Origin: a virus
Lineage: Duplodnaviria; Caudoviricetes
DNA: 64,000 bases
Virus record (IMG/VR): IMGVR_UViG_3300037455_000173
Coordinates: 32,001 to 96,000 of that record
Strand: one strand, 5' to 3'
The notes beneath the pieces were generated by a model. The model ran no database searches. It worked only from the letters and a program-made list of their open reading frames with translations, and was not told the origin of the DNA. A program made the position numbers and the translations under genes. Below, piece after piece: positions 41,640 to 41,944 of the stretch; position 1 is the first letter of the stretch; the number at the start of each line of letters is the position of its first letter.

Positions 41640-41944
41640 ACGCTACCTCCTAAGTACATCGGGTTTGTTGTTTACGTTTACTGTATCTATATTATAACAT
41701 ACTACAGGTTCACTTCCGAAGTTTGTAAAACCATTGTAGTGGTTACACAGGTGTACAGTATACACAGCACACCACGCACGCTAACGCATATTAATGGTTT
41801 ACGTATGTAGGTGTATAACTATACACTAAAAATACCACACGGTTTGCGTGTGGTTTGCTACGTGTGGTTTTGTGTATTATTAATCAGAACTGCGGTGAGA
41901 ACTCGAAGTGTGATAGTTGAAAAGGTAAGGGCTCTTTCGAGCCC

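Follow-up and report, generated by a model that had tools for sequence, protein, structure and literature searches.

A conserved family of palindrome-rich intergenic elements depleted of GA/TC dinucleotides in related large rumen phages with a DpdA-like transglycosylase gene

The window analysed here, a stretch of 64,000 nucleotides, comprises bases 32001-96000 of a 166,592-bp viral genome (G000) that originates from bovine gut metagenomes and has no close match among deposited phages. Nearly all genes in the window lie on the minus strand. Read along the gene strand, the arrangement around the flagged stretch is the stop codon of gene 41945-42139, its terminator (41917-41946), about 30 nt rich in GA/TC, an intergenic island free of these steps, a promoter (41677-41724) and gene 41268-41639. 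GA/TC steps are dense in the flanks of the island, and its boundaries are sharp. The original prediction described about eleven intergenic islands strongly depleted of GA/TC dinucleotides; all eleven proved to be depleted, and a partial, weaker copy beyond that list was newly found (Table 1).

Table 1. Positions in the window of the islands and of the elements next to the flagged copy.
Feature	Position	Strand	Description
Flagged island	41719-41884	.	0 GA/TC and 0 GGC/GCC in 166 nt; 12-mer core at 41776-41787, dyad centre, several hairpins
Promoter downstream of flagged island on the gene strand	41677-41724	-	AACTTCG, 17 nt, extended -10 TGTTATAAT, conserved start region
Intrinsic terminator of gene 41945-42139	41917-41946	-	8-bp GC-rich hairpin over the stop codon, then U run
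Terminator-like hairpin within flagged island	41834-41854	-	8-bp stem, then T run
Island	271-427	.	3 GA/TC in 157 nt; orthologous islands in G002, G004, G005
Short island	13841-13924	.	0 GA/TC in 84 nt; abuts AACTTCG-class promoter
Island	33551-33710	.	4 GA/TC in 160 nt; starts at stop of gene 33711-34235; abuts promoter 33507-33554
Island	36612-36780	.	5 GA/TC in 169 nt; abuts promoter 36560-36607; long hairpin 36789-36886 on distal side
Island	39654-39800	.	4 GA/TC in 147 nt; abuts promoter 39607-39654; orthologues in G002, G003, G004, G005
Island	43371-43538	.	3 GA/TC in 168 nt; abuts promoter 43324-43371; motif order inverted relative to most copies
Island	46872-47040	.	5 GA/TC in 169 nt; 60 nt upstream of promoter 46765-46812; inverted 12-mer core at 47011-47022
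Partial, weaker island (newly found)	47810-47912	.	Upstream of promoter 47763-47810
Island	50749-50965	.	7 GA/TC in 217 nt; directly upstream of gene 49920-50732; 12-mer core at 50810-50821
Island	59217-59366	.	4 GA/TC in 150 nt; abuts promoter 59169-59216; 12-mer core at 59230-59241
Island	63461-63613	.	6 GA/TC in 153 nt; abuts promoter-like AACTTCG element, then TGTATAAT

The promoters in this region belong to a sigma-70-type family of the form AACTTCG-N17-TGTTATAAT, of which about 28-29 copies occur in the window at ~18-61 kb (18559-60789). On the gene strand, TGTTATAAT is followed by a conserved start region and a leader with a strong Shine-Dalgarno sequence. The CTTCG block is invariant and stands exactly 17 nt ahead of TGTTATAAT, at the -35 position, although it is unlike TTGACA; one GA/TC step is present in every copy of it. 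Most islands had been placed at the upstream edge of a promoter, and nine of the eleven indeed abut one or lie within 60 nt of it. Where there is a long spacer before a promoter, the spacer is an island; where the promoter stands directly behind the preceding gene, there is none. Elsewhere in the genome, at 133,828-134,460 (L001:13828-14460, minus strand), a 210-aa protein matches sigma-70 region 2 and is possibly a phage sigma factor for middle or late genes.

The islands constitute one family of palindrome-rich intergenic elements of about 160 bp that is conserved in the clade. They share, in a conserved order, an ACAGC...GCTGT palindrome, the words CCACGTGG/GGTATACC, a GTATAnTTATAC centre, AAACC repeats and the 12-mer core GCACGCTAACGC. 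The existence of common motifs, noticed at the outset, was borne out by their counts: allowing up to one mismatch, the 12-mer occurs five times in the window versus 0.13 expected, each time inside an island, and all nine genomic copies of its 8-mer core also lie within islands. Each related genome carries 4-5 copies of the 12-mer, where about none is expected. MAFFT alignment and a profile made from six copies revealed the element across the whole genome, in many cases with matches on either strand, so that it is roughly dyad-symmetric.

No other GA/TC-free run in the window or elsewhere in the genome is as long as the 166 nt that separate the GA at 41718 from the TC at 41884, so that the stretch at 41721-41884 originally said to lack these steps is real and slightly longer (41719-41884); the runners-up measure 110 and 98 nt. 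Given a GA/TC frequency of 0.122 (12.2% of steps), the probability of any run of at least 166 nt in the genome is ~8e-6. Individual islands contain 0-7 GA/TC steps, with 10-27 expected. Pooled, the eleven islands (1,738 nt) contain 41 against ~180 predicted from matched intergenic DNA, and this comparison shows a depletion to 0.23 times the frequency in non-island intergenic DNA (Poisson P ~6e-36). Because the pooled islands have a G+C content of 37%, AT-richness is not the cause. The loss is symmetric with respect to the gene strand (18 GA and 23 TC) and is specific to the direction of the step, since AG/CT, made of the same bases, occurs 144 times versus 41 for GA/TC (binomial P 6e-11). Among the dinucleotides, GA/TC shows the strongest loss in the islands; relative to non-island intergenic DNA, milder decreases were seen for AA/TT (0.89), GG/CC (0.72) and AG/CT (0.67), and the alternating steps AC/GT (1.51), CA/TG (1.42) and TA (1.31) are enriched.

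Low-outlier 150-nt segments were also counted; G000 has 19 for GA/TC and at most five for every other dinucleotide class. Across G000-G005, each genome has 14-19 such segments for GA/TC versus 0-10 for any other class, and the same criterion returned two GA/TC segments in 618 kb of unrelated viral contigs. No general intergenic depletion of GA/TC was found in G000, in the phages CAjan and Dp-1, in the unrelated rumen phage G007 or in the unrelated contigs, and the intergenic GA:AG ratio of G000 resembles that of unrelated viruses. Scans with a binomial test of GA versus AG in each window had low power and gave 1-3 hits per genome.

These results bear on a neutral origin, in which the islands would be spacers where modified GA has decayed by mutation, as in a CpG island in reverse. 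The islands are non-coding, and the possible decay products TA and CA/TG are enriched in them. However, GA and TC occur at 1.02 and 0.93 of expectation at codon 3-1 junctions, which makes a mutational origin of the depletion unlikely; general intergenic DNA likewise lacks a deficit, and the rate at which the islands evolve is as low as that of coding DNA, with perfectly conserved motifs retained in them. We consider neutral decay very improbable, and grade in the same way the earlier suggestion that the islands represent a second class of promoters. A scan of 39400-43800 found one weak sigma-70-like match in an island, and the -35/-10 pattern inside the islands was inconsistent from one to the next.

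Relatives were obtained by scanning IMG/VR with the promoter pattern and then with the island motif, which yielded five large genomes (G001-G005) and one fragment (G006). The promoter pattern succeeded where searches with two single island-adjacent proteins had returned no relatives; the 14-mer island motif gave 81 matches, mostly due to chance, and its only new relatives were G005 and G006. The relatives share ~72% nucleotide identity with G000 across ~60% of its length. At least six island groups are syntenic in the clade, with 70-85% identity, about equal to that of coding DNA, and the hairpin conserved among the relatives is followed by a run of 5-6 T. In the island at 39654-39800, a 25-nt hairpin block (39713-39736) is identical in four genomes. 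Overall, the family of modules is real, conserved and previously undescribed.

About 55% of the island alignment columns are identical across genomes at 72% average nucleotide identity, so that much of the island sequence is fixed motif, in agreement with a rival explanation by composition. The islands would then be protein-binding or structural modules composed of a few palindromic, alternating words (ACAGC/GCTGT, CCACGTGG, GTATAC, GCATGC and AAACC), and because this set of words contains no GA/TC, the depletion would be unrelated to DNA modification. Such modules could serve in binding of HU or a regulator, as bendable or wrapped upstream DNA, or in cruciform formation. The rise in purine-pyrimidine and pyrimidine-purine steps, the decrease in every purine-purine step that contains G rather than in GA alone, and the dyad symmetry implied by profile matches on both strands all agree with this explanation. 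On the other hand, GA/TC is depleted threefold more than AG/CT, which has the same bases, and we know of no structural property that separates the two so sharply.

The alignments of orthologues address how far fixed motifs can account for the depletion. Masking of shared 7-mers was set aside for this purpose, because rare GA-containing words are seldom shared and the procedure is therefore biased. In the six orthologue groups, steps that are fully conserved had a GA/TC frequency of 0.033 and variable steps one of 0.054, with a background of 0.12-0.14; AG/CT occurred at 0.056 and 0.079, respectively. The variable columns are thus still 2.4-fold depleted, which indicates that the depletion has been kept over a long divergence and is not limited to fixed motifs, contrary to what a fixed vocabulary would give. 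Paralogous islands likewise have few 11-mers in common, yet all have 0-5% GA/TC. The overall frequencies in the orthologue groups (GA 0.046 versus AG 0.071) show a weaker contrast than in G000, so the depletion is less direction-specific in the relatives. Furthermore, recent substitutions among the relatives created 47 new GA/TC steps versus 60.7 expected, a mild deficit that was similar for AG/CT. This lack of specificity over the short term is in line with a by-product of composition. Taken together, we rank the by-product explanation as a close second to one based on modification, and in itself as rather unlikely.

The hairpins in and around the islands raise the further question of whether the constraint acts on RNA. 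If the islands were transcribed, as 3' untranslated regions or by read-through, they could act as groups of hairpins that stabilise or terminate transcripts and thereby insulate one early unit from the next, and in hairpin-rich sequence a constraint on one strand would show on both. The islands had been called intergenic; they are not all untranscribed spacer, since the one at 33551-33710 begins at a stop codon and several contain terminator-like hairpins. Their folding is more stable than that of shuffled sequence, with a mean z-score of -2.4 for the gene strand versus -1.7 for the opposite one, a difference in the direction that an RNA element would produce. Gene-strand hairpins that are GC-rich and followed by a U tract were found as sub-elements at 39713-39736, 41834-41854 and 59306-59335, the last of these, in the island at 59217-59366, being a 13-bp hairpin that makes a strong intrinsic terminator; the T run behind the conserved hairpin of the relatives fits the same pattern. 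Within the islands, only these sub-elements have the make-up of an intrinsic terminator, and they do not account for the whole 160-bp island. The single mismatch in the conserved hairpin is a G-U wobble on the gene strand and C-A on the other, and seven of nine copies are oriented in this way; however, the symmetric changes in the half-sites fit a dimeric DNA site equally well.

Several other observations do not favour an effect at the RNA level. A canonical terminator already stands ahead of the flagged island, some island copies are inverted with respect to the genes, and we know of no reason for RNA to shun both GA and UC. A search of 33000-64000 against Rfam 15 (E <=1) returned three true tRNAs and a fourth row (E 0.78) opposite a tRNA, with no match in the islands. 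The RNA contigs of one metatranscriptome agree exactly with the genes on either side, and their ends fall within ~10 nt of predicted starts, at sister promoters a few nt downstream of them; none of these contigs covers an island, and because contig gaps prove nothing, this absence is a weak hint only. Overall, an RNA-level element appears improbable.

Other repeats accompany the islands. On the terminator side of several of them lie long hairpins with GAGCTTCGAGT...ACTCGAAGCTC stems (36789-36886, 39843-39910 and 47061-47128), and the loop of the first contains tandem 9-nt repeats (36803-36865) with the gene-strand unit ATCTAACAY. The 8-mer AGCTTCGA occurs 16 times versus 2.1 expected, nearly always at 36.8-48 kb and in some cases within genes; its core, CGAAG, reads as the promoter's CTTCG inverted, and several islands therefore stand between the two arms of an inverted repeat. 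In addition, cattle-gut contigs from other samples join positions 33530 and 38952 (promoters), 36759 and 47048 (islands), and 49891 and 39711, skipping 5-10 kb; the flanks are short for the first two. These joins suggest that the repeated intergenic cassettes may be recombination joints that shuffle early genes.

The explanation that we tentatively prefer starts from the gene content of the genome. The original prediction had recommended a search for dpdA and que genes, and both kinds are encoded in G000. A DpdA-like transglycosylase of 335 aa (phrog_887, E 2.5e-49) lies at 156.8-157.8 kb (L002:16820-17827, minus strand) and adjoins replication genes; it was detected by PHROGs and missed by the Pfam TGT family (PF01702). 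In tblastn comparisons, it is 38% identical to the enzyme of Dp-1 and 26% identical to that of CAjan. Genes for FolE, QueD, QueE, QueC and QueF (L001:3792-6752) and for QueA (6755-7990) were identified by Pfam and PHROG at 123.8-128.0 kb of the genome and make the preQ1 pathway complete. Each of the five complete relatives (G001-G005), which all bear islands, encodes the DpdA-like protein at 90% identity. Beside the DpdA gene, the gene for a single-strand-binding protein contains, at ~155,791 of the genome (window coordinate 123,791), a 302-nt run without TA, three times the expected maximum.

Target motifs have been mapped experimentally for just two phage DpdA enzymes, those of CAjan (GA and GGC; PMC7544227) and of the phage iggy (GA; PMC10484667). 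In the islands, once corrected by a first-order Markov model, GGC/GCC is the lowest of the 32 trinucleotide classes, with 4 occurrences versus 24.6 expected (ratio 0.16, against a genome-wide baseline of 0.71). GGT is enriched, occurring 76 times versus 4 for GGC, a loss and gain that the by-product explanation leaves unaccounted for. Both known DpdA motifs are thus avoided in the islands, where 7% of G stands in a GA or GGC context versus 33% genome-wide; the latter figure would be the modified share if the enzyme were CAjan-like. The island GGC/GCC ratio is also 0.16 in G003, whereas it is 0.42-0.59 in G001, G002 and G004. This weak avoidance in three relatives, together with the non-specific substitution test, counts against an explanation by modification, as does the reduction of AG/CT (0.67x) and GG/CC (0.72x) in the islands. 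The level of modification differs widely among enzymes of this type: DpdA1 enzymes reach 0.1 to 30%, and Dp-1, the closest studied relative of the G000 enzyme, has dPreQ1 at only ~1.7% of G (PMC6884629), a low level that likewise speaks against this explanation.

Short palindromic words were examined in the same genomes. GATC occurs 4 times in G000 versus 563 expected and is, together with GGCC (0.37), one of the two most avoided 4-mers. In the relatives, GATC occurs 1-10 times in G001-G004 and is relaxed in G005 (41) and G006 (46 in 38.8 kb), and GGCC is at 0.14-0.37 of expectation in G000 and G001-G004; Dp-1 also contains only 8 GATC. This purge would be unexpected if G were protected in GA and GGC, although DNA of CAjan and iggy is still EcoRI-sensitive (PMC10484667). 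Palindromic hexamers with GA or GGC steps gave a mixed picture, being less avoided in four relatives (P 0.006-0.04) and not in G000 (P 0.86). The loss of GATC does indicate strong, sequence-specific pressure from the host, and a related proposal is that the islands avoid a host defence or nuclease that reads TC/GA, such as ADP-ribosylation of TNTC by a DarT2-type system on single-stranded DNA, or a deaminase or nuclease specific for TC, in regions where the DNA often becomes single-stranded. The palindromes could extrude or melt, as this would require. However, with ~20,000 GA/TC steps elsewhere in the genome, local avoidance would give no general protection, and there is no sign that the islands are origins or single-stranded. 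Defence avoidance seems to us highly unlikely, and the DarT2 variant of the original prediction found no support.

The three other DpdA-positive phages that were searched (CAjan, Dp-1 and G007) have no comparable islands. A low-GA/TC segment of G007 was rejected as a candidate, because it is an A-rich spacer and the 14-mer match of that phage lies in coding DNA. In CAjan (NC_028776), five 150-nt windows (~11.6, 24.1, 35.2, 39.0 and 50.1 kb) have GA/TC far below AG/CT and none has the reverse, and in 618 kb of unrelated viral contigs the corresponding numbers are 3 and 2; the CAjan windows may represent local purging of GA in a phage with a proven GA/GGC motif. The original proposal of modification-free windows gains real, if indirect, support from the DpdA and preQ1 genes and from the double depletion of GA/TC and GGC/GCC, and is weakened by the GATC/GGCC purge, the reduction of AG/CT and the lack of islands in CAjan, Dp-1 and G007.

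A candidate binder of the islands is encoded ~9.3 kb before the start of the window, where G000 carries an HU-family gene (22537-22812, minus strand; 91 aa; PF00216, E 8.5e-30, at 22543-22812). The protein is nearest to Firmicute HU (1HUE, E 8e-21) and also matches TF1 of phage SPO1 (E 7e-8). The gene is kept in all four relatives searched (G002-G005) and is absent from G007, and directly downstream of it lies one of the strongest islands, with a GA/TC-free run of 110 nt. The co-occurrence of the HU gene with islands and the lack of islands in other DpdA phages agree, in a small sample, with a by-product of composition. More generally, the idea that the islands are flexible sites for protein binding is compatible with their perfectly conserved palindromic motifs, the enrichment of alternating steps and the phage HU gene. 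HU proteins bind mainly in the minor groove, so it is not obvious that a modification in the major groove would exclude them.

Overall, we find it possible, and tentatively favour the view, that the islands are protein-binding modules kept free of the phage's own guanine modification. Each module follows the terminator of the preceding transcription unit and stands immediately before the next sigma-70-type promoter, in most cases an early promoter. The DpdA enzyme would exchange the G of GA (and GGC), which amounts to about a third of the guanines, for a preQ1-type 7-deazaguanine, which would remove N7 and place a substituent in the major groove. The islands, built almost solely from G contexts that the enzyme would leave untouched (GT, GC after A, T or C, and TGGT), would then be the only long unmodified stretches of virion DNA. 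They would be available to the phage HU-family protein and/or to a host factor acting on the incoming DNA, and the likely output of such binding would be control of the adjacent promoter. The starting points of this scheme, namely the depletion, the element family, its position and conservation, and the presence of DpdA, preQ1-pathway and HU genes, are observed; from them we infer four further steps: modification of the DNA, GA/GGC as its motif, a protein that occupies the islands, and control of the promoter as the result.

To our knowledge, sequence-specific hypermodification in phages has been studied almost solely as a shield against restriction and CRISPR. The islands touch on the wider question of how the regulatory DNA of a phage can still be read when one third of its guanines are replaced. 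A more far-reaching claim, which we regard as doubtful, is that they are the first case of regulatory DNA freed from its own hypermodification by removal of the target motif, with about one third of G replaced elsewhere; this would show that a Dp-1-like DpdA targets GA and GGC, with an HU-type or host protein reading the islands for control of early promoters. If they are indeed purpose-built unmodified windows, they would reveal a rule of genome design whereby a modification-silent alphabet is used for regulatory modules, would make DpdA target motifs predictable from sequence in uncultured phages, and would supply work on early-promoter control with defined DNA elements and a candidate partner of HU type. 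Should the depletion be just a by-product of motif composition, the finding reduces to a well-conserved and hitherto undescribed set of palindromic elements between the genes of this group of large rumen phages, which is of moderate interest.

The system most similar to the one proposed here is that of the DpdA phages CAjan, with its GA and GGC motifs, and iggy, with GA. G000 has the same enzyme family and precursor pathway, and its islands lack exactly those motifs. However, its enzyme is just 26% identical to that of CAjan, and motif-free regulatory islands have not been described for CAjan or iggy, with none found in CAjan. A full-text literature search returned no paper on motif-free islands in deazaguanine phages.

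With regard to the arrangement of the genes, the closest parallel is provided by the PeSL (promoter-early plus stem-loop) cassettes of T4-type phages, which Arbiol et al. in 2010 reportedly proposed to shuffle small early genes. As in those phages, small co-oriented early genes in G000 each lie behind a near-identical strong promoter and hairpins (at least 29 promoter copies), and population contigs join at promoters and island motifs. PeSL cassettes differ in being short promoter-plus-hairpin units without a 160-bp palindrome-rich module and without a dinucleotide purge.

TF1 of SPO1 is a phage HU homologue whose preferred sites lie near early promoters in hydroxymethyluracil DNA. G000 resembles SPO1 in that its DNA is predicted to be modified, it has an HU-family gene of its own, and special sequences stand beside its early promoters. 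However, TF1 favours modified DNA, whereas the candidate sites here would be unmodified patches, and the HU of G000 is nearer to ordinary Firmicute HU. Finally, unmethylated GATC sites are protected in the bacterial regulatory regions of pap and agn43, and CpG islands are likewise distinct in their modification state. The predicted state of the G000 islands is similar, in that regulatory DNA would differ in modification from the rest of the genome. In pap, agn43 and the CpG islands, the motif is present, and either the enzyme is kept off by a bound protein or the site escapes mutation, whereas in the islands of G000 the motif itself is missing.
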